Virus record (IMG/VR): IMGVR_UViG_3300030100_000755
Coordinates: 1-64,000 of that record
DNA length: 64,000 nt
Source of the DNA: a virus
Lineage: Duplodnaviria; Caudoviricetes
Direction: 5' to 3' (one strand)
Under the pieces are notes generated by a model. The model worked only from the letters and a program-made list of their open reading frames with translations. It was not told the DNA's origin and ran no database searches. Below, piece by piece: positions 24,816 to 35,755 of the stretch. The stretch's first letter is position 1; the number at the start of each line of letters is the position of its first letter. The position numbers were made by a program, and so were the translations under genes.

Positions 24816-24838
24816 ATATTACCTCCAAGTTTAGATGT

Positions 24839-24862
24839 GTGTCTAAAAACCTTATATTATAC
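24839..24862 (+). promoter_or_regulatory. Putative late promoter motif (terS)
   Basis: GTGTCTAAAAACC, shared with motifs before terL, portal, tail fibre and protease. Confidence 0.45.
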
Positions 24863-24890
24863 AGATTTCCAATATAGGTCAAGACATTTT

Positions 24891-25403
24891 ATGAATACAA
24901 AAATCACCACGCGATTACCCACTCTGACTAAACCGAGGCAAGAAAAGTTCCTAGAGTTATTGTCTAAGACAGGTAATATGTCACGCTCTGCTGCTGAATT
25001 AGGACTAAGTTATAGCACAGTATCATCACTCATGTCAAAGGATGAGTATTTTAAAGAGATGGTACAAATTGCTAAGGCTAAGTATTTAGGTAAGCTTGAG
25101 GACACGGCTTATAAACGCGCTGTGGATGGCGTAGAGGAGAATGTGTATTTCCAAGGGCAGATTATCGACACTAAGACAAACTACTCTGATAAGCTGTTAG
25201 AGACACTATTAAAGGCTGCTTCACCAGATAAATATGGTGCTAAGAATAACAACCAAACAAACAACACATTAATCGTAACAGACAGTGATAGTACTGTTGC
25301 AGCACTAGAGAAATTCTTGAAGATTAAAGATGATGATAAATCTGAGGAATCTGAGGATGGTGGTGACGATGATGTGATTGACGGAGAATATAGTGAAGAA
25401 TAA
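24891..25403 (+). CDS. terS: Terminase small subunit
   Basis: QEKFLELLSKTGNMSRSA HTH, KRAVDGVEENVYFQG, YSDKLLETLLKA; acidic tail. Confidence 0.8.
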   Translation: MNTKITTRLPTLTKPRQEKFLELLSKTGNMSRSAAELGLSYSTVSSLMSKDEYFKEMVQIAKAKYLGKLEDTAYKRAVDGVEENVYFQGQIIDTKTNYSDKLLETLLKAASPDKYGAKNNNQTNNTLIVTDSDSTVAALEKFLKIKDDDKSEESEDGGDDDVIDGEYSEE

Positions 25404-25418
25404 GAAATGGTCTAATAA

Positions 25419-25646
25419 TCATTTCTTACACCCCATATCTTCATAAAGCTGGTCTTGTTCATCTATTCGTAATAACAAAGGAATAAGGTCAGCCTTGATA
25501 GCCTTGTCTATTTCAACATTAGTGGGTTTAATTTGCTCAGCAACTAAGCAGTAATCAGTGGTTGTTACGCTTACGCATCCGCTCAATACGTTCAGCATCA
25601 GACAACTCACCACTATCTTGCCTAGACTCTTTAGCTTTAGATACAT
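25419..25646 (-). CDS. o-spanin (Rz1-like lipoprotein)
   Basis: Lipobox VLSGC; overlaps the i-spanin 3' end in another frame. Confidence 0.75.
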   Translation of the reverse strand: MYLKLKSLGKIVVSCLMLNVLSGCVSVTTTDYCLVAEQIKPTNVEIDKAIKADLIPLLLRIDEQDQLYEDMGCKK

Positions 25647-25779
25647 TATCTATGACCCCCTCTTGTTGCTTAACACGCTCTTTATTCTTACCTGATTTAA
25701 CAGCTTCATATAAGATAAAGCCAAACAATAAAAGCATTAATAGTACACCATATATCCATGACTTTATCTTATTTAACAT
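25555..25779 (-). CDS. i-spanin (Rz-like)
   Basis: N-terminal TM plus periplasmic coiled coil, downstream of the endolysin. Confidence 0.75.
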   Translation of the reverse strand: MLNKIKSWIYGVLLMLLLFGFILYEAVKSGKNKERVKQQEGVIDNVSKAKESRQDSGELSDAERIERMRKRNNH

Positions 25780-25782
25780 ATT

Positions 25783-25989
25783 TTATGCCTTATCTTTTGG
25801 CTTAGCATTACCAACGTTAATAGCAAATACGTTAGCTATTGATCTAATAAAATCTAATACTTTACCAACGGCGTTGTCATCTTTCTTAGTTGGAGTTAAA
25901 GCGGCAATAGCAGATGCAGCAGTAACCAACATAAAGATGGCGTTTAACCAAGCTGGTAAATCTTCAACAAACTTTAGTAACTCATTCAT
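25783..25989 (-). CDS. Small holin-like membrane protein
   Basis: TM helix followed by TPTKKDD; position between endolysin and spanins. Confidence 0.55.
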   Translation of the reverse strand: MNELLKFVEDLPAWLNAIFMLVTAASAIAALTPTKKDDNAVGKVLDFIRSIANVFAINVGNAKPKDKA

Positions 25990-26005
25990 AACTTATAACC
26001 TCATT

Positions 26006-26395
26006 TTAATGTGTAATTTTTAATACCCAACTTTCATCACCAAAATACTTCATTATTTTAAGTAATGCTTTCTTGCTGTCAACACCCATATACTCCTCAC
26101 CACCAATTTGTTTTAACTTCATACATGGTGCAATACAACCAGCAAGTTGTTGTACATAATTAGCGGGGTGTAATTCTATTGCAAATCTAGGCGCTACTTG
26201 TTCATCCCTAACTCTATAATATTGCCAACGCCCAGTAACATCCCTATCTATAATATAGACACCTTCAGGTATGCAAGAAACATTAGATTCGTTATTTAAC
26301 CACGGCCTTTCTAGTGTAAAGATTTCATCACCATTAGGTAATATAATAACACCAGTAGTACAACTCTCATGGTATTTACGCCTAAGTGTCAGCAT
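26006..26395 (-). CDS. DUF5675-family putative endolysin
   Basis: TLERPWLNN, SCIPEGVY, IELHPAN, GCIAP; lysis-cassette context. Confidence 0.72.
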   Translation of the reverse strand: MLTLRRKYHESCTTGVIILPNGDEIFTLERPWLNNESNVSCIPEGVYIIDRDVTGRWQYYRVRDEQVAPRFAIELHPANYVQQLAGCIAPCMKLKQIGGEEYMGVDSKKALLKIMKYFGDESWVLKITH

Positions 26396-26834
26396 TTACC
26401 CTCCGCTCATATTTATCACGTATTCTTTCAGCATCTCGTTTCATTGGTAAGAATGCATCTTTAATACTTTTAATAAAATCGTGTCGATAAATAATATCAA
26501 TCAGTTCAGACTTATCAATAGGCTTGCGAATATAATCAATAACACCAAGATGTAATGTAGCAATGACATTCTCAGGATCATCACTTGCCGTTAAGAACAT
26601 GACAGGTATATCCCTCGTTAATGGATTTAGTTTCAAATCCTTACACAATGTAGTACCACTCTTATGAGGCATTTCATAATCGAGCAACACAAAAGATGGC
26701 TGCTCTTTCTGAATGACCTCTAGGGCTAATTCTGGATTTGATATACCAATACAATTATAACCAGCGCTTTCTAATTGATTGGTAAACATCTGTAAATCTA
26801 TGTCATTGTCATCTACAATTATAATTGTACTCAT
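26382..26834 (-). CDS. Stand-alone CheY-like response-regulator receiver domain
   Basis: IVDD (D8, D9), LLDYEMP (D52), DIPVMFLTA (T82), DYIRKP (Y101, K104); no output domain. Confidence 0.92.
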   Translation of the reverse strand: MSTIIIVDDNDIDLQMFTNQLESAGYNCIGISNPELALEVIQKEQPSFVLLDYEMPHKSGTTLCKDLKLNPLTRDIPVMFLTASDDPENVIATLHLGVIDYIRKPIDKSELIDIIYRHDFIKSIKDAFLPMKRDAERIRDKYERRVNADT

Positions 26835-27124
26835 TTGTTCGTCCTGTTCATTAAGTGAAGCATTAATCCGTCCATTCTTTTCTCTAAACTATTAGCTGCT
26901 TGTAATGAACTATCAGCTAATGATCTAGTATCACCCTTAATCCCTTCTACATCTTTCTTGATTGGGGTTAATGCACCATTAATCATCTTTTCTACTTCTT
27001 CACGACTAACAGACTCACTTGCTTTCTTGTTTAAGTTTTTGAGCGTATACCAAAACCACCCAAAAACCCCCGCCCCGATTAACGACACTATTGCCATTAT
27101 CGCATCCTGTATCGTTAACTCCAT
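26831..27124 (-). CDS. Single-TM holin/antiholin-like protein
   Basis: N-terminal TM (IMAIVSLIGAGVFGWFWY) plus coiled coil; first gene of lysis cassette. Confidence 0.6.
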   Translation of the reverse strand: MELTIQDAIMAIVSLIGAGVFGWFWYTLKNLNKKASESVSREEVEKMINGALTPIKKDVEGIKGDTRSLADSSLQAANSLEKRMDGLMLHLMNRTNK

Positions 27125-27145
27125 AATCTCCCCTTAATTATAAAT

Positions 27146-27796
27146 TTATGACCAGTCTAAGTTAGCCATGTAATTATCAATCTCTTGTTGAGTTTCTAAT
27201 GCATTAATATAATCTTTGTGTTGACGCGCTTTATATACATAATGCTTCTTGTGTGCAGCCACAGTTTGGCCTAGTTGTTGCAACTCAGATGACGTTAATT
27301 CAACTTCAATATTATCAACAGTGAGCCATGTAGTGTCCACACCAGACAATACTGCACCCATTAAATCACTAATAGATTGTTGATCTGTTTGATATGTGTG
27401 ATTATTAAATTCAACCCCACCATGTATATAACCATCACGTAGTGAATTGATTGATGATTTAGCGTTATTACGAAGTAGGTCGATGCCAATAGGTGATACA
27501 GATACATCAGAATTAGAGTCATCATGCAGTTCCCATAACTTTTCCCACACATTAATCTCAACATCAACCATCTTAGGTTGTTCTTCCGTGATGTCATTAC
27601 CCTCTTCATCTTGCCCTACAACAACTTCTTCTGTTCCTTGCTGTTCTTGGGTGTAACGTTTGAAGTCTTCACGTATTACCCCTGAGTGAGTAGGCAAACC
27701 TTCACCTTCATCCCATACCCAAGAAACAGCACCATCTTCATTTTCTTTGAATGTATCGACTTTTAAGAAGTCATTTTCGTCTATAAATGTAAGCAT
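27146..27796 (-). CDS. DUF4376-like tail fibre-associated protein
   Basis: INSLRD, YQTDQQS, WLTVDN, KARQHKDYINAL C-terminal pattern; follows the fibre gene. Confidence 0.7.
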   Translation of the reverse strand: MLTFIDENDFLKVDTFKENEDGAVSWVWDEGEGLPTHSGVIREDFKRYTQEQQGTEEVVVGQDEEGNDITEEQPKMVDVEINVWEKLWELHDDSNSDVSVSPIGIDLLRNNAKSSINSLRDGYIHGGVEFNNHTYQTDQQSISDLMGAVLSGVDTTWLTVDNIEVELTSSELQQLGQTVAAHKKHYVYKARQHKDYINALETQQEIDNYMANLDWS

Positions 27797-27808: not shown

Positions 27809-28870
27809 TTAGAAGTTTACTTTTATTTTTGAAGAAGCGTCCCCTGTACGTAATTCTACATGATTACCCGTCCCCACTGAGCTGCTCAATGTAATGTTGA
27901 TTACTGCTACCCTACTGGACGATTGTCCTTGCAAAGATAGCGTAACATTAGACTCAATTAGTACGTTGTTACTGAACACAGAGAACTGACCTTCTGTAGT
28001 CAAGCTGGAAGGAAGAGTGTTACTCATTAAGGGGAGATAAACTCTTGCAACAGTAGATGTTAACATTACTCCTGTCGCCACCACGTCCTGAGCACTGTTA
28101 CCCGAAAACTCGTTAAGGTTAGTGTTACCGCTGTGATAGAGCTCTGCCCACGGTGAAAAACCCGACGAAGACGGTTTTCCTCGAAAATATGCTTCCCTCC
28201 CGTTTATATTTATTGAAAGTTGTGTGCATAGGGTGTTTGAGTACCCCGAAGTTAGTACTGTACTAAAACCATTAGACGCACGATTAACAGTAGAAGTATT
28301 AGTTCTTGATAGTCCTGAAGGAGCTAAGTCAAGGTTGCCTGAGATCGGAACTGAGCTAAAATCCCCCGATTCTACACCTAAACCATAATCTAAAGGATTA
28401 ACAGAGTTACCGCTGTGGAATATTCCAGCGCTATTTAATGCCGCATCACTCTGAAAGTACGCCTTGGTAACAACATCATCACTAGCAACTGGCGCAGATG
28501 CCTTTAATCGCCCATTACTATCACGTTTAGCTATGCTATTAGCCGCAGCACTGACATTAACATCACCAGCAATGCCCTCGTATGTAACTCGTAGTTGTCG
28601 TATTTCCTCGGCAGCAGCTTTAATCTCAGCAGCAGTGGGTGCAGATATAGCGGATTGCCCTGAACCACTTGCGCCATTCCAATTATCGAATAGCTCAATA
28701 GTCTGAGGTGTGGCTGATGTGTTAACTGTCTTAACTTCTTGTATTCGCCCATTACCAATTTGAATCCATGAATTAGGCGAGATTAGAGAAACATCATCGC
28801 CTGTATTCACCCGTATAAATTTGTTACCGTTAGTAGCGGTAACATCTGTTGCTGTAAATAATTGTGACAT
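27809..28870 (-). CDS. Tail fibre / receptor-binding protein
   Basis: ATNGNK fibre N-terminus, IAKRDSNGRL, FHSGN, PWAELYHSGN motifs. Confidence 0.75.
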   Translation of the reverse strand: MSQLFTATDVTATNGNKFIRVNTGDDVSLISPNSWIQIGNGRIQEVKTVNTSATPQTIELFDNWNGASGSGQSAISAPTAAEIKAAAEEIRQLRVTYEGIAGDVNVSAAANSIAKRDSNGRLKASAPVASDDVVTKAYFQSDAALNSAGIFHSGNSVNPLDYGLGVESGDFSSVPISGNLDLAPSGLSRTNTSTVNRASNGFSTVLTSGYSNTLCTQLSININGREAYFRGKPSSSGFSPWAELYHSGNTNLNEFSGNSAQDVVATGVMLTSTVARVYLPLMSNTLPSSLTTEGQFSVFSNNVLIESNVTLSLQGQSSSRVAVINITLSSSVGTGNHVELRTGDASSKIKVNF

Positions 28871-28948: not shown

Positions 28949-31900
28949 TTAATTTAGTATATTTTCAAAAGTACTTATGGAGCACTTTTGATTTCTTCCT
29001 GATAGATTTAATTGGTCTACTTCTATTGTATAAGTGTAAGTTGTGCTGCTAGTGTTAGAATCAATTAGATTTGTACCAAAGGAATAATAATCCGTAGTAA
29101 GGTACTCACCCTGCTCATAACGTACATCACGAGTAACATTAATCTTACCTGACTCTAGGGTAGAGCTACCACGTTTCACAGTGTAGTCTATTAAGTACGT
29201 AGACGTTCCTACACCACCTGACGGAGCACTACTAGTGTTAGCAAAAGCACTACCTGACGAACCAACAGTAATTGATACATTCTTACCTGCACTTTTATGG
29301 TTTACAGAAGCGGAGTATACGCCAGTAGCTGACTGACTTTCAACAACACCCCCTTCAAAGAAACTACCTTTAATATACCCCGTACCATCTTTCTTAATCC
29401 AGAATGTACCATTAGCATCATTCTTAGCCCCCTTACCAATCCAGAACATATAAGTCCCGTCATCTTCCATTATGGCTCTTGATGCGCTTGCTGATTGAGT
29501 TGTTGCAACTCTACCGCCTGATACACTAGCACCAGAGATAGTGCCGCCTGTAATAGTGGATGCTGTAATAGTAGCACCGCTCACATTACCACTGAATGTA
29601 CCTGAGTCAGCGATAATCTCACCATCAAATACATAGCGACCATTCTCAACATCAAAATAAATCATTGGTGTGTTATCATCGTCAACGAATACAACACTGT
29701 CTGATTTGAACTCTATTTGTTGTTGTGAATTACTACCGCTAACAAATATACCTGTCACTTGGTCGTTAACATTAACACCAAAGAAAGCCCTAGCTTCTAA
29801 TTCACCAATAGACTGATTAAAGTTGGTATTCAATTGAACCTGAGCAGCGGCGAAATCCTCGTTATCCTCTACTCGGTTTGTTAACTGTGTAACACTACTA
29901 GCAGCGCCATCGGCAGTTGATTGAGCAGTCTGAACAAATCCATACAAAGCACTAGAGTTAGTTTGAGGGTTATCTAGCTTACCTTGAACGCCACTGATTG
30001 CAGTAGCTTGCTGACCATTAACAACTTCCACGCTATCTATGCGAGATAATGCGCCACTTAAACCGCTATCTAAATCGTTAACTTCTATCTCAAGCGCATC
30101 AATGGCGGATGTTTGTTGCCCATTAACTGTTTCAACGTCATTTAACCTAGTTAACGCCCCACTAATATCACCATCATTATTGGTAACTCTCAAATCTAGC
30201 TGGCTTATAGCCGTAGCCTGTTGCCCATTAATGGTTTCAACGCTGTCAAGCCTAGTTAGCGAGCTACTAATATCTGACTCTACATCAGTTACTCTTTGCT
30301 GTAATCCACTTATAACCGTTGCTTGCTGCCCATTAACAGTCTCTACACTGGATAACCTAGTTAAAGCACCACTCAACCCACTATCTAAATCATCAACCTC
30401 TATCTCTAATGCATCAATAGCACTAGTTTGTTGATTGTTAACTGTTTCAACGCTGCTTAATCTAGTTAACGCACCATTTATATCACCATCGTTACTAGTG
30501 ACTCGCAAGTCTAGTTGACTAATCGCTGATGCTTGTTGCCCATTAACAGTCTCTACACTATCAAGCCTACTTAAAGTGCCACCAAGCCCAGCGTCTAAGT
30601 CGTTAACCAACAACTGCAAACCACTTATAGCAGATGAGTTATTGTCAGCATCTATTTCTACTTGGTCAACTCTTTTAATCGTTGCTAATATGTCTGACTC
30701 TGTATCGCCCACTCGCAAAGAAAGGCCACTAATCGCTGATGTATTACCATCAACATCAGTTTGAACCCTGTCAACTCTGTCATTGGTAGCAGTGATTAGA
30801 TTGCCGTTAATAACAGTAAACGCTTCAAGGCTCGTTAGCTGTTCAGCAAGCGCACCATCTGGACCAATATCAACGTTGATTTTATTGATAGCATCAGCAA
30901 AGTTTGTGTTAGTCGATAAATCACCCGCTCGTATTTTAGCGATATCTATCTCAGCAAATAAAGCGGCAATGTCAGACTCTTGGTTTCTCGACCGCTCTGT
31001 ATAGATACCATACGCATTGTTAACAATCTCACCATTCTGTGCATCTATGCGCTCATTAGCTTCGATGAATTGCGCGGTGTTGTCATCCTGATTTGACTGT
31101 ACTGTTTGAGCAAGTGTTGTAACTGTTCCGCCTAACGCATCAATCTCAATACCAGCGGTATTCGCCTTAACAATCGTGTCGTTATCAATCAACTCCTGCC
31201 TAGTCGCTTGTAAGTCAATGATGCTATTCAAGCCATCAACAGTAGTCTCAACATTACTAAATGTAACGGTGTTGTTGTTATATTCGGTAACGGTTACACG
31301 CTGTGTTATTGCCGCCTCATTAGCATCAATATCTAATTCAGCCTGTGATACTCGCGCTTGTACGCTTTCAAGCTCAAGTAGTGAAGAGTCTGGTTTACCG
31401 ATTATAATAGACGTAATCGTAAACTCATCAGCAACGCTGTTACCAAGCACCAACCTAACGCGATTAATAGTACCGTTATAAGATGATATACCTCTAAAGT
31501 CAGCACTAACCGTTACAGCACCAACAGACGGCTCTGCAATGATTCCAGCGTAGGTTTCTGTGGTAGTGTCGTCACGCTCGATGATAACGTCACCACGCCA
31601 TCCTGAGCCGCTTGTGCGTTCGATACCAATACGAATTAATTGGTTTTCAGACGCATCGAAGTTAAGTGAATCATTTTCAATATCACCAAACGCAACGTCT
31701 ACTTCGTTAACACCATTTATGATTGTACCATTTACTGCAACCCATCCCTGAGCGCTGTCAAAGAAATTAAATGAGTGAGCAGGGGTTAGGGCACTAATTG
31801 ACTCATTAACAATACTCGTTGCTGTTGCTGTTATCTGACCCGGTATTAATGATAATTCAGAAGATAGGTTTGTGACCTCACCCTCAACTGTTTCAATGCG

Positions 31901-34900
31901 CTGTGTAGCAATATCAACTTCACCAGATACACCATCAATTAATAACTGAGCATTAGTGAATGATTCGTCTGTGTAGTTAAATGCTCGGTTAACTATTTGC
32001 CCGTTAGTTGGATCAACATAAACAACAGCATCAATAAGAGACTCACCAGCAGCTACTCTTCGCGCCAATTCCTCACGACTAGCAGCAGCTTGGATTTCAG
32101 ATTGTAATAATTCAAGTTCAGATTGTTGTCTACGCTCAGATTCTGTTTTTAACCTAAATTCTATGTCACGATTAATACCAGATATTGCTGTGATCGAGTC
32201 AGTAATGTTTGATATATCTAGGTTAATATCATCAATATCAGAACCAATATCAGTAATGTCTAGGTTAATATCATCAATATCAGAACCAATGTCGATAATA
32301 TCTAGGTTAATATCATCAATACCAATCTCAATATTATCTAGTTCATCACGAATAGTATCGCTATTGAACACAACCTCTACTGATGTGGATGCATAATCAG
32401 ACTCATTACCAGCAACATCAATAGTCTTAACAAAGAAATAATGAGTACCAACATCAGTTGTTGAGTATGTAGTGGTTAATGCATCTACGCTACCGATTCC
32501 TATACTATCAGAAACATCTGTGAATGGTGGCTTACTAACTCTCACTTCATAATTATCAATAGCATAACCATTATTCGAGATAGACCATCTCAGCCTAGAT
32601 GTTAGACCCTCTTGTTCAGCAATGAAACTATTAGGGATAGGTGGTTGATTGACAAGTACATCAACGCTATCACCAATACCATATTCACCAAACGTGTTGA
32701 ATGATGATACATAATACATTTGTTGTGTTGTGAGTAATCCTAAGAAGAATGAATTATCCTTGGTTACACCAACAAAATTTTCATCTTCCACACCAAAGTT
32801 CAAATCAGTTCTGATCTCATAACCAGCTAACTCAGGGTCTTGAACAGGAGTGTATGTTAAGTACGTACCGTCTAAATTATGAACGTAGTTTAAGTTCTCA
32901 ACTTCTGGTAAATCTTCACCTGCTCTTAGTTCAACAATAACGTTATTAGACCAACCAGAAACAGCACCGATTGGTGATCGAAATTGAGACCTAACCTCAT
33001 ATTTCAAACCACGATCTAGTGTTGTAACCTCAAAAGCAAACTGTGCTACATCACCTTGTGCAATATACTCCCAACCATCATCTTCATCAAGAAAATACTC
33101 GTCTGGTGTGGTAGCAGTGAGTGGGAATGAACGCGCTTGAATATAAGCCCTATAATTCTTAGCTGGATATGATTGATCAGGACTATTCACCAATATACTC
33201 ATTACACCACGATTAGTGCTAACAGACATTACTGGACTAGGTGGTTGTGTAGTATCAGTTGGTATTGCAATGCTTGGATTATATGTGGGTACGGGATTAC
33301 CATCGAAATCATACAACTCGTTTGCAGCATTCAACAGTGTTAATGTAGCACCTAAATCTTCATTATATTTTATGCTAGTGATAATACAGTCGATGGCTTC
33401 TTTACCCACTTCACCATATATAACTAAATCACCAACTAAAACCTCAGCATCTAATGTATCACAATCAAATTGACCATCACCTAAATATGTGGCAGGACTA
33501 GTAGTAATAACACCTTTACTATCTCTAACCTGAACACCGAAGTTATTAGGTGGTAATTGGTCTGTGTTTATTTGTTCATCTAAAGTTATGACATTACCAT
33601 TGATAGCTTTAATTCTACCAGCACCTAAGCCAACATTAATTATGTCATTGGTAACACGAACTAAATCACCACGCTTACTTGCTAAAACCTCAGCATCTAA
33701 GTCTAAAGTATAAGCTTCTCGTCTTAGGAATTGCTCATAATAATCTAATCGAGTAAGACGATACGCTTGGTCAAAGTTGTCCACACCCCATAAATCAACA
33801 GACGTGTATCTACCTTTAAGTAGTGTTTGGTCTAACGCTTTAGCAGGATCTAAGAATGTACCTTCATCTTGCTCATAATCAACATCTTTAGATTCAAACG
33901 TAAACTTAACACCATCTACTACTTCTGGATAAACTCTACGTGATTGGAAGTTAGCGCTGTTCTTAGGTGTAAATATTTGACGAGGTACTACTTGCTTAAT
34001 CTTTTCAATTACGCCAAACTTACCCTCATTAAATTGGAACTCAGCACGACCAACATAAGAAACATTTTTTAATTCTGTTAGTAATGTTGATTGGTAATCT
34101 ATTAACGCAGAAATAGTCCAATTCTCATCAATACAACGCTGTCTCCAAGTCGATAAGCTATTATTATCGATCTTATCGTTAGGGATAGGGCTGTAATTCA
34201 TACCTCCCTGCATTAACCACTTATAAGCATCAGCAGGGTTATTAGAAGGTTCTAAGGTAAGGTTAGGCCAATCGCGCCAATCAGTACTTTTATCAGAAGG
34301 GACAACCATTGTAGCATCACAATAAAGGTTATCTAAGTTACCATTTAACTGACCAGTGGCTCTCATTCTAACACCGATAACAGTAGGTCTAAAGTTACGA
34401 ACAACATTACCATCATAACGAAGTCTTGGTCTGTTATAACCAATAGCCTCTTTAAACCCATCATCAGTCAACGGTCTAATTGTTTGCAAGTTTTCCCACT
34501 GAACATCAGCGGAACCCCTAGCCTCCTCAACTCGCTCTCTAGTAGGACCAACTTTTCTTGTTCTAATATTTATACTAGTTTGATTACCCCATATTTGCGG
34601 AACACGAGGTATTCTAATTGATTTTAGCTTAGGTTTTCTAGTTGAATCGGTATATACTAGAGAGCCGATCTTATAGTTCTCTGGTAGGTTCTTGAAGAAT
34701 AATAACCCATCTACATTAATGACTTCATAGTTACCTAATGATGATAGTCGCTCACCATTAGCGTTTACGAAACCCTCATCGAGTAGTCCATATATTTTAT
34801 TCAGGATTGAACTGTCTTTCCATACTACAAAATCACCTTGATATGGAGATACAGCATAATCTCTAGGGTGTAAGACTGTACCACTAGTTGCCCTTTGAGG

Positions 34901-35755
34901 CTTAACTACTGTCCACCAATCACCATTCTCATCCTGTATGTCTTGTCTAACCTCAACAATTTGAGGTTCATTATTACCCTTCTTATCCATTGAGAATACG
35001 CCAGAAGGGAATAGGAAATTACTCACAATGGTTTCTGGATTAGGAGCAGTTGTTCTGTTAGTCCAACCTTCCTCTTCACGCAATTCAATCTGTACTAATT
35101 CTTGATTAATATCTTGTTTCCAGAACTCACGGATAACAGATTCATCGGTATTTTCAAAATGATCTAATACGACAACTTCAACATCATCAAAATCTTCTAT
35201 TGATGTTTCACCAATACGGAAGTTTTCTAATTTAAGAGGGCCATAACCAGCAGAGAATAATGCGTGGAAATATTCCCTATCACCCTCTACTGTGGTGTAA
35301 GGGCGAGAAATATAAGAAGGAGCAATCTTACGCTTACCTAGTAAGGCTTGAAATGGTTCATAAAGTGGGGTTTTGTTTTTAAGTCCAGATATGCGGTCAA
35401 ATTTATTTTCATCTGAACCTTCTGTGTTTTGATCACCAATACTGGGCATTAACGCAATAGATAACGCAACAGAGCCTACAACGATTAACGCTACTACCCA
35501 CGGTGAAATAGGATCGGCAGGAACTAATGTAACATGAACAACATCATCTACTTTTGGTTTATAGTTACCATGTACCACTTCACCATTAACTAATACTTGT
35601 GGGTTTGAGCCTGTATTGTTAGAGGCATTTTTCTTTATATCAGATACAGAAACGCCCACCCCTATATGATGAAGGGTAGGCTCATTAAACGGGTGTTCTT
35701 GTACTAAGAGAGAAAATACGGGTGTCGATAAAATGCCCTGATCTTTGCTTTCCAC
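28949..35755 (-). CDS. Central tail fibre / tip attachment protein (J-like, 2268 aa)
   Basis: EPFQALLGKRKIAP, SAGYGPL, NPADAY, KRGDLVRV hub motifs; FN3-like segments; long coiled-coil repeats. Confidence 0.88.
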   Translation of the reverse strand: MESKDQGILSTPVFSLLVQEHPFNEPTLHHIGVGVSVSDIKKNASNNTGSNPQVLVNGEVVHGNYKPKVDDVVHVTLVPADPISPWVVALIVVGSVALSIALMPSIGDQNTEGSDENKFDRISGLKNKTPLYEPFQALLGKRKIAPSYISRPYTTVEGDREYFHALFSAGYGPLKLENFRIGETSIEDFDDVEVVVLDHFENTDESVIREFWKQDINQELVQIELREEEGWTNRTTAPNPETIVSNFLFPSGVFSMDKKGNNEPQIVEVRQDIQDENGDWWTVVKPQRATSGTVLHPRDYAVSPYQGDFVVWKDSSILNKIYGLLDEGFVNANGERLSSLGNYEVINVDGLLFFKNLPENYKIGSLVYTDSTRKPKLKSIRIPRVPQIWGNQTSINIRTRKVGPTRERVEEARGSADVQWENLQTIRPLTDDGFKEAIGYNRPRLRYDGNVVRNFRPTVIGVRMRATGQLNGNLDNLYCDATMVVPSDKSTDWRDWPNLTLEPSNNPADAYKWLMQGGMNYSPIPNDKIDNNSLSTWRQRCIDENWTISALIDYQSTLLTELKNVSYVGRAEFQFNEGKFGVIEKIKQVVPRQIFTPKNSANFQSRRVYPEVVDGVKFTFESKDVDYEQDEGTFLDPAKALDQTLLKGRYTSVDLWGVDNFDQAYRLTRLDYYEQFLRREAYTLDLDAEVLASKRGDLVRVTNDIINVGLGAGRIKAINGNVITLDEQINTDQLPPNNFGVQVRDSKGVITTSPATYLGDGQFDCDTLDAEVLVGDLVIYGEVGKEAIDCIITSIKYNEDLGATLTLLNAANELYDFDGNPVPTYNPSIAIPTDTTQPPSPVMSVSTNRGVMSILVNSPDQSYPAKNYRAYIQARSFPLTATTPDEYFLDEDDGWEYIAQGDVAQFAFEVTTLDRGLKYEVRSQFRSPIGAVSGWSNNVIVELRAGEDLPEVENLNYVHNLDGTYLTYTPVQDPELAGYEIRTDLNFGVEDENFVGVTKDNSFFLGLLTTQQMYYVSSFNTFGEYGIGDSVDVLVNQPPIPNSFIAEQEGLTSRLRWSISNNGYAIDNYEVRVSKPPFTDVSDSIGIGSVDALTTTYSTTDVGTHYFFVKTIDVAGNESDYASTSVEVVFNSDTIRDELDNIEIGIDDINLDIIDIGSDIDDINLDITDIGSDIDDINLDISNITDSITAISGINRDIEFRLKTESERRQQSELELLQSEIQAAASREELARRVAAGESLIDAVVYVDPTNGQIVNRAFNYTDESFTNAQLLIDGVSGEVDIATQRIETVEGEVTNLSSELSLIPGQITATATSIVNESISALTPAHSFNFFDSAQGWVAVNGTIINGVNEVDVAFGDIENDSLNFDASENQLIRIGIERTSGSGWRGDVIIERDDTTTETYAGIIAEPSVGAVTVSADFRGISSYNGTINRVRLVLGNSVADEFTITSIIIGKPDSSLLELESVQARVSQAELDIDANEAAITQRVTVTEYNNNTVTFSNVETTVDGLNSIIDLQATRQELIDNDTIVKANTAGIEIDALGGTVTTLAQTVQSNQDDNTAQFIEANERIDAQNGEIVNNAYGIYTERSRNQESDIAALFAEIDIAKIRAGDLSTNTNFADAINKINVDIGPDGALAEQLTSLEAFTVINGNLITATNDRVDRVQTDVDGNTSAISGLSLRVGDTESDILATIKRVDQVEIDADNNSSAISGLQLLVNDLDAGLGGTLSRLDSVETVNGQQASAISQLDLRVTSNDGDINGALTRLSSVETVNNQQTSAIDALEIEVDDLDSGLSGALTRLSSVETVNGQQATVISGLQQRVTDVESDISSSLTRLDSVETINGQQATAISQLDLRVTNNDGDISGALTRLNDVETVNGQQTSAIDALEIEVNDLDSGLSGALSRIDSVEVVNGQQATAISGVQGKLDNPQTNSSALYGFVQTAQSTADGAASSVTQLTNRVEDNEDFAAAQVQLNTNFNQSIGELEARAFFGVNVNDQVTGIFVSGSNSQQQIEFKSDSVVFVDDDNTPMIYFDVENGRYVFDGEIIADSGTFSGNVSGATITASTITGGTISGASVSGGRVATTQSASASRAIMEDDGTYMFWIGKGAKNDANGTFWIKKDGTGYIKGSFFEGGVVESQSATGVYSASVNHKSAGKNVSITVGSSGSAFANTSSAPSGGVGTSTYLIDYTVKRGSSTLESGKINVTRDVRYEQGEYLTTDYYSFGTNLIDSNTSSTTYTYTIEVDQLNLSGRNQKCSISTFENILN
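29985..30600 (-). repeat. 35-aa (105-nt) coding repeats with ABC-ABC higher-order period
   Basis: L(S/T)RL(D/S)SVETVNGQQ units read in the translation. Confidence 0.85.
32215..32325. repeat. 42-bp coding tandem repeat (DIDDINLDITDIGS)
   Basis: TCTAGGTTAATATCATCAATA occurs 3 times at 42-nt spacing. Confidence 0.88.

Follow-up and report, generated by a model that had tools for sequence, protein, structure and literature searches.

A stand-alone response-regulator receiver (REC) encoded in the lysis cassette of an uncultured phage is paired with a small membrane protein. In the loci examined the two genes form an obligate pair that, judging from their sequences, is always inherited together, and this pairing of a receiver with a membrane partner is new. 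We tentatively interpret receiver and partner as a phage-specific two-gene module that would act as an accessory regulator of the lysis cassette, a lysis-timing switch phosphorylated by the host. A first-pass annotation of the window (the whole stretch of 64,000 nucleotides analysed here) had proposed a lysis switch under the control of host signals. Synteny, a phosphorylation site kept in 17 of 18 aligned sequences and the lack of a phage kinase together favor such a host-fed phospho-switch tied to lysis over the other readings.

The window is part of an IMG/VR virus record that is 83,986 bp long, is rated 100% complete and represents an uncultured, marine-type virus. Based on megablast, no near-identical DNA of the cassette occurs in cultured phages, and cultured phages match the primase-helicase at no more than 31% identity. 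The record encodes exactly one REC gene. A profile search of all 83,986 bp found no HATPase_c, HisKA or Hpt domain, so that the earlier statement that no kinase is encoded holds beyond the window, for the entire record.

The receiver and its helical extension

The REC gene (26382..26834, minus strand) encodes 150 amino acids. Pfam assigns the protein to PF00072 (Response_reg; E 5.3e-24, 85 bits compared with a cut-off of 30.2), with residues 4-115 of 150 covered, and finds no second domain besides Response_reg. Residues D8, D9, D52, T82, Y101, K104 and P105 are all present in the translation, which bears out the first description of a CheY-like receiver with a full phosphorylation site. Across an alignment of 18 sequences the phospho-site residues are kept in 17-18 relatives (D8/D9 in 18/18, D52 and K104 in 17/18). 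This alignment takes in distant analogues, and D52 and K104 are missing from that of phage PT11-V19 only. The proposed check on the conservation of D52 thus came out in favor of the site.

A core alignment of 14 sequences is invariant at M1, T3, D8, D9, G25, P34, A37, P46, D52, M55, P56 and G60, and at C64, K68, T73, I76, P77, F80, H95, G97, D100, Y101, K104, P105 and Y142. Position 82 is always T or S in REC proteins of the true family. Conservation is highest in the active-site loops, beta3-alpha3, the NPxTRxIP loop, beta4, alpha4 and beta5, and alpha1, alpha2, alpha5 and the tail are more variable.

The AF2 model of REC (pLDDT 77.6) is a standard (beta-alpha)5 receiver with five strands and five helices, in which alpha5 is prolonged as a long helix to residue 148, with low confidence there. 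Together with the single Pfam domain, the model agrees with the earlier view that there is no output domain and only a C-terminal helix. This extension of alpha5, or stalk, comprises residues 108-148 and includes conserved P130 and Y142; in the model, Pro130 probably introduces a kink. When the model was searched with Foldseek, TM scores of 0.7-0.8 were obtained to many REC structures, and the top matches, PleD (2v0n) and WspR (3bre/3i5a), extend over 138-145 columns with the stalk included. In a PDB profile search PleD ranked first, and DivK, Spo0F and CheY were also strong. The PleD-type resemblance noted from the sequence is therefore well founded, PleD being the best solved relative.

NCBIfam DgcR aligns to REC residues 3-145. 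The PleD model is matched at positions 3-129 only, and REC ends at residue 150 without a GGDEF domain. In a near cellular relative from Methylophaga (L041), the receiver is joined via such a helix to a HisKA kinase core. Based on the coverage of the stalk by PleD, WspR and DgcR and on the Methylophaga REC-HisKA relative, the phage protein looks like the receiver and signalling helix of a REC-output fusion that was cut before the output.

REC is thus of the single-domain response regulator type, with a receiver, one helix and no output domain. Its identification as PhoB was rejected, given that the PhoB model TIGR02154 scores 83 bits compared with a cut-off of 296 and covers residues 2-114 only. 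The PhoB/OmpR class was rejected because the 150 amino acids include neither PF00486 (Trans_reg_C) nor another DNA-binding domain, and REC is not a diguanylate cyclase of the REC-GGDEF class because no GGDEF follows the stalk.

Among 185,579 species represented by one genome each, no cellular REC relative exceeds approximately 38% identity, with one exception. The exception is a 42,718-bp contig (L038, PBFM01000045.1) filed under a 'Candidatus Neomarinimicrobiota' MAG, which shares its length and its REC (46% identical to the window REC) with the IMG/VR R9Y-like phage contig L008 and probably represents a phage genome that was wrongly assigned to this MAG. On the basis of this survey the REC clade is phage-specific.

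The membrane partner and its linkage to the receiver

The gene for the REC partner (26831..27124, minus strand) encodes 97 amino acids, and AAGGGGAG is the Shine-Dalgarno sequence ahead of its ATG. The protein has an N-terminal transmembrane (TM) helix at approximately residues 3-27, a helical linker that varies in length and, at the C-terminus, approximately 45 conserved amino acids with the motif VKxDTRSMAxSV..LExRLDxLMLHLMN. An AF2 model made with 12 relatives has two helices, 5-38 and 42-95 (pLDDT 73). No Pfam, NCBIfam or meaningful PHROG family was found for the partner. An exhaustive hmmsearch of 1.84 billion representative proteins with the partner profile returned only 65 matches at E<=1e-3, which are 30-153 amino acids in length with two exceptions. 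No fusion of partner and REC, and no partner within a larger protein, was found among much longer proteins using a weak, word-based search, and no copies were found in prophages or cells across 185,579 species genomes using a single usable pattern, also a weak search. A protein identical to the window partner (P0017) is recorded on 10 contigs. The longest of these, at 128,507 bp, exceeds the 83,986-bp record that is rated complete, and may be a concatemer or a larger relative.

Across 35 members, lysine and arginine residues around the TM helix number 11 in the N-terminal flank compared with 114 in the C-terminal flank. Based on the positive-inside rule, the partner is predicted to be N-out/C-in, which would place its conserved C-terminal helix on the cytoplasmic side, like REC. 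An i-spanin is of the opposite topology and a separate Rz/Rz1 pair is present at 25419-25779, so this assignment was rejected; matches to Rz PHROGs are at noise level only. A Mu-type releasin (DUF2730; Atlas feature lead 0.90) was rejected because HMM support was absent at E<=0.1 across 11 members, and an Hpt or DHp domain because there is no match to HisKA or Hpt. Transfer of phosphate from His90 of the partner to the receiver aspartate was likewise rejected, as several members have D, S, T or N at the position of H90. Next to partners with this replacement, REC keeps D52 wherever that REC was read.

The partner gene was initially described as holin-like. It does encode a small protein with one TM segment in the holin position, which makes it a holin candidate, but most loci examined have another holin-like gene: the 68-amino-acid protein discussed below in the window, a class II holin in Foturvirus and GTA_holin_3TM in the analogous locus of XX1924. 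Thus, the 97-amino-acid protein is probably not the holin, or not the only one, and is better called a dedicated REC partner.

REC and partner co-occur in 16 loci (the window and 15 others), and REC homologues at 33-75% identity each have a partner homologue directly 5'. The cultured carriers are the Alteromonas phages H4/4 and R8W (Foturvirus, Autographiviridae) and the siphoviruses R9Y1-3. The uncultured carriers include IMG/VR relatives of R9Y1-3 and metagenomic, phage-sized contigs (L011, L020, L022, L024, L025, L030, L031 and L032). In 12 of the 16 loci the junction is a 4-nt ATGA overlap; in the others the genes overlap by 1 or 8 nt or are 1-2 nt apart, and stop and start are coupled in every locus. 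In the window the ATGA is at 26831-26834, where the 5' end of REC is shared with the partner, and the 3' end of REC overlaps the gene for a DUF5675 protein by 14 nt; the ORF coordinates agree with the overlaps as first reported, and the other sequence features of the first-pass annotation hold as well. As read from the genes, the ATGA stop/start overlap couples the translation of partner and REC.

Pairwise identities of REC and partner are correlated (r = 0.87, 120 pairs). The association was also tested from the partner side, using four divergent profile matches (P0025, P0030, P0032 and P0036) that were chosen blind to their neighbors. All four are directly followed by a REC of this family, with 42-51% identity to the window REC and the same C-terminal helix. 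A comparison of the window with contig L020 gives identities of 73% for REC and 70% for the partner, against only 29% for DUF5675, and we conclude that the pair is a tighter unit than the pair plus endolysin.

Lysis genes and the exchanged endolysin slot

The window pair is located at the border of the tail-fibre and lysis modules. Directly upstream of the partner gene is a gene for a DUF4376 tail-fibre chaperone-type protein of 216 amino acids (27146..27796, minus strand; Pfam E 1e-16, phrog_2837 tail protein). Downstream of REC, on the same strand, are the candidate endolysin DUF5675, a second small membrane protein and candidate spanins. The gene order given earlier (membrane protein, REC, endolysin candidate, membrane protein, i- and o-spanin candidates) is upheld by Pfam, by weak PHROG matches and by an LSGC lipobox.

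The DUF5675 protein (26006..26395, minus strand) has 129 amino acids (Pfam E 2.8e-18). In an alignment with seven relatives, H76 and G86-C87 are invariant, and an invariant His/Cys pair is of the kind found in YkuD-type enzymes. The DUF5675 proteins beside the REC pair have no signal or TM segment, and they look like cytoplasmic, holin-dependent YkuD/C82-like peptidoglycan peptidases. DUF5675 has been described as a C82-peptidase-like lysin domain (bioRxiv 10.64898/2026.04.11.717860), and as an endolysin type it is formally still a 'DUF'.

The protein encoded next (25783..25989, minus strand) has 68 amino acids, one TM segment at 11-33 and a TPTKKDDN motif. It matches phrog_9685 (E 2.3e-13; PHROG function unknown) and is a second holin candidate. 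Similar small proteins are encoded behind the endolysin in R9Y2 and further downstream in L011. The i-spanin candidate (74 amino acids; 25555..25779, minus strand) has a TM segment at 4-30 and a charged periplasmic part, with a weak match to the Rz-like phrog_1026 (E 1.4e-5). The gene for the o-spanin candidate (75 amino acids; 25419..25646, minus strand) overlaps the i-spanin gene in another frame; its product carries the LSGC lipobox and has a weak match to the Rz-like phrog_1275 (E 3e-4).

No terminator-like sites were found within the cassette (25419-27796). The sole terminator-like site found, at 28166-28183, is upstream of the cassette, inside a gene for a 353-amino-acid fibre protein, and promoter-like sites in the cassette region were not above shuffled background. 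Two other genes near the block were noted. Converging on the end of the lysis cassette is a 188-amino-acid ORF (24837-25403, plus strand) whose product resembles a helix-turn-helix protein in its N-terminal segment, is very acidic in its tail and may be a small terminase or a regulator. Just upstream of the fibre, chaperone and lysis block is a gene for a 2268-amino-acid fibre protein (28949-35755, minus strand) with long runs of near-repeated 'SVETVNGQQ(A/T)SAIS...L', and these repeats suggest a repetitive coiled-coil or beta-helical shaft.

The gene that follows REC varies across loci. It encodes DUF5675 in the window and in L022, L024, L030, L031 and L032, and a SASA-domain protein followed by DUF5675 in L020. 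A GH108 lysozyme follows in the R9Y group (with PG_binding_3) and in L033, Amidase_3 in L011 and Peptidase_M15_4 in L035. The next gene encodes a membrane protein in Foturvirus, where the class II holin precedes the pair, and in L025; for the gene behind REC in L034 and L036, no family match is on record. An endolysin is thus most often encoded directly after REC, and its type is swapped among loci. The proposed synteny check likewise placed REC and partner ahead of lysis genes in many phage lineages. Endolysin types replace one another in the slot behind REC, and the pair itself is conserved as one block. Of all the observations this one, which comes from gene position only, most strongly suggests that the pair has a role in lysis.

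The SASA (sialate O-acetylesterase-like) protein of L020, the contig with the closest relative of the window pair, has 553 amino acids (L020:5443-7104), and its gene separates REC from DUF5675. The protein may aid lysis by removing O-acetyl groups from peptidoglycan or a polysaccharide.

The V22 ORF29, PT11-V19 gp11 and XX1924 partner proteins were left out of the family and treated as analogues, as their membership is unsupported by hhalign. In XX1924 the order is a C-terminally anchored coiled-coil protein, REC, DUF5675 and GTA_holin_3TM. In V22, REC comes after ORF29 (TM plus coiled coil) and ahead of genes for a spanin-like and a holin-like protein, and DUF5675 is encoded four genes further downstream. 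The hhalign probability between ORF29 and the window partner is 33% and concerns the TM region only. PT11-V19 encodes DUF5675 two genes off, on the opposite strand, and a REC without D52 and K104, with an alignment-dependent identity of 25-30%; its partner is not demonstrably homologous to the window partner based on hhalign.

Candidate lysis genes in the flanks of the V22 REC analogue (L026, 635-2714) encode a C92 permuted-papain amidase (weak Pfam match, E 9e-4), a spanin-like TM and coiled-coil protein of 136 amino acids and a holin-like two-TM protein of 87 amino acids. This region may be a V22 lysis cassette, which is not mentioned in the V22 paper.

Possible roles and comparison with known systems

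If the pair acts on lysis, a host donor (histidine kinase, Hpt or acetyl phosphate) would phosphorylate D52 of REC. The switch at D52 would alter how REC engages the cytoplasmic helix of the partner, via the alpha4-beta5-alpha5 face or the stalk, and the partner would then delay or promote the triggering of a separate holin in the membrane, in an antiholin-like manner. Given D52 phosphorylation, partner engagement and holin action as proposed, the timing of lysis would track the signalling or energy state of the host. That REC, charged by host two-component systems or acetyl phosphate, and its membrane-anchored partner together set holin firing as a phosphorylation-gated lysis clock is conceivable, although we regard it with some doubt.

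Several observations count against a lysis role. Gene position is the sole link to lysis, and the pair is also at the border of the tail-fibre module, a known hot spot of exchanged and accessory genes (PMC10579305). A membrane protein rather than an endolysin comes next in Foturvirus and L025, and L034 and L036 have no family match there; among the analogues, DUF5675 is several genes away (V22) or on the other strand (PT11-V19). As phages with a T7-like gene order typically lack such a pair between their holin and terminase genes, it can be no more than accessory.

An alternative is that the membrane-tethered REC is a phosphate sink or signalling decoy. In late infection it would draw phosphate from a host phosphorelay or block it; the target could, for instance, be a c-di-GMP pathway of the PleD/WspR type or one for envelope stress or motility. 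Its adjacency to lysis genes would then reflect late co-expression only. The intact receiver without an output domain and the lack of a phage kinase are consistent with a sink, as are the PleD/WspR-type receivers that are the nearest solved relatives. The module is common to unrelated phage types and all cultured carriers infect Alteromonas, which fits a host-specific target. A pure sink, however, needs no dedicated, co-evolving membrane partner with a conserved cytoplasmic helix, nor does this reading explain why the pair is so regularly found directly ahead of an endolysin gene, with four to five endolysin types involved. We therefore consider a sink unlikely.

It is rather improbable that the pair is an accessory AMG or moron (PhoB-like or CheY-like) that moves with the tail-fibre and host-recognition module and has a role unrelated to lysis. 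The window pair comes right after the DUF4376 chaperone gene and pairs follow tail-fibre genes in several other loci; the analogous block of V22, A5 and P24 is exchanged together with fibres (PMC10579305), and published annotations name an AMG (PMC8228385, PMC7289586). The PhoB reading fails, however, on a protein of 150 amino acids without Trans_reg_C or another DNA-binding domain. Furthermore, REC is translationally coupled to both neighbors within a late operon and shows no promoter or terminator signal of its own that exceeds background, and the pair stays beside the endolysin slot in most loci even when the endolysin is swapped.

Least probable is a phosphorylation-independent, pseudo-receiver-like scaffold, in which the REC fold merely binds the membrane partner and the acidic pocket serves metal binding or stability: the PT11-V19 analogue keeps the gene pair without D52 and K104, but its partner lacks demonstrable homology and the true family, down to 33-50% identity, keeps D8, D9, D52, K104, P105 and Y101 invariant and T or S at 82.

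Lysis timing determines burst size and phage fitness. If the proposed switch is real, it would be an antiholin or lysis regulator of a new class, and the first case in which host phospho-signalling is wired directly into the timing of phage lysis. The lysis decision would gain a new input through a receiver in the lysis cassette that is kept with a private membrane partner in podo-, sipho- and larger phages alike, whichever endolysin they encode. The proposal is directly testable, given the cultured carriers R8W, H4/4 and R9Y1-3 with culturable Alteromonas hosts.

The first-pass annotation knew of no phage lysis control of this type. The published papers on such receivers do not link them to lysis, but homologues or analogues had already been annotated there as PhoB or as a CheY-like AMG. 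The family member of Alteromonas phage R8W was published as PhoB, an AMG for adaptation to low phosphate (PMC8228385). The Foturvirus pair (R8W and H4/4) belongs to the true family, with REC 56% and the partner (gp47/gp43) 41-42% identical to the window proteins. It has the same ATGA coupling and is flanked by the class II holin gene on one side and by membrane and terminase genes on the downstream side. The reading as a PhoB AMG is ill-fitting, as there is no DNA-binding domain, and neither the membrane partner nor the lysis link was noted there.

The V22 gp30 and A5 gp11 proteins were published as a CheY-like class II AMG in a shared host-recognition module (PMC7289586, PMC10579305). Like the window protein, they are stand-alone receivers of approximately 149 amino acids with an intact phospho-site, preceded by a small TM and coiled-coil protein; the fibre chaperone is encoded ahead of them, and genes for holin-like, spanin-like and DUF5675 proteins are close by. 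Unlike in the window family, REC is only 22% identical, ORF29 is not detectably homologous and DUF5675 is four genes downstream. The R8W, V22 and A5 papers do not mention a membrane partner or lysis (PMC8228385, PMC7289586, PMC10579305). Full-text searches of the literature gave no relevant account of a response regulator or receiver domain in a lysis cassette, and the 'Receiver domain' of N4 gp63 is such in name only. The published labels PhoB, 'hybrid kinase' and AMG are thus corrected here; labels of this kind are used in marine virus ecology to infer adaptation to phosphate stress.

Among cellular proteins, CheY, DivK, Spo0F and CpdR resemble the window REC in consisting of a receiver only, with the full phospho-switch (D, T/S, Y/F and K) and a presumed output through protein contacts. 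In contrast to these, the window REC is encoded by a phage without a cognate kinase in the genome, has the extra alpha5 stalk and comes with an obligate partner that is anchored in the membrane and whose family is undescribed. In sequence and structure REC is best matched by PleD, WspR, DgcR and the Methylophaga REC-kinase, the only ones that also span the long alpha5. In REC-GGDEF and REC-HisKA proteins the stalk helix carries the phospho-signal to a dimeric output. No GGDEF or HisKA follows the helix of the window REC, and any output would have to be in trans.

To our knowledge, no known lysis regulator (antiholins, the lysis inhibition systems of T4 and ICP1, N4 gp62) reads host phospho-signalling. 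These systems sense superinfection or work as membrane timers. The antiholins and lysis regulators of T4 (RI/RIII), ICP1 (PMC7182436) and N4 (gp62, PMC12642591) are accessory, non-essential lysis-cassette genes that tune holin triggering, and T4 RIII as well as the termini of N4 gp62 act on the cytoplasmic side (for N4 gp62, PMC12642591). The window pair differs from them in that it has no sequence similarity to T4 RI/RIII, ICP1 or N4 gp62 proteins and in that none of those uses a receiver or phosphorylation; its putative functional likeness to antiholins is drawn from position only. As is characteristic of the antiholin class, REC lies inside the lysis cassette, between a membrane protein and the endolysin with spanins downstream, and this placement recurs across loci.
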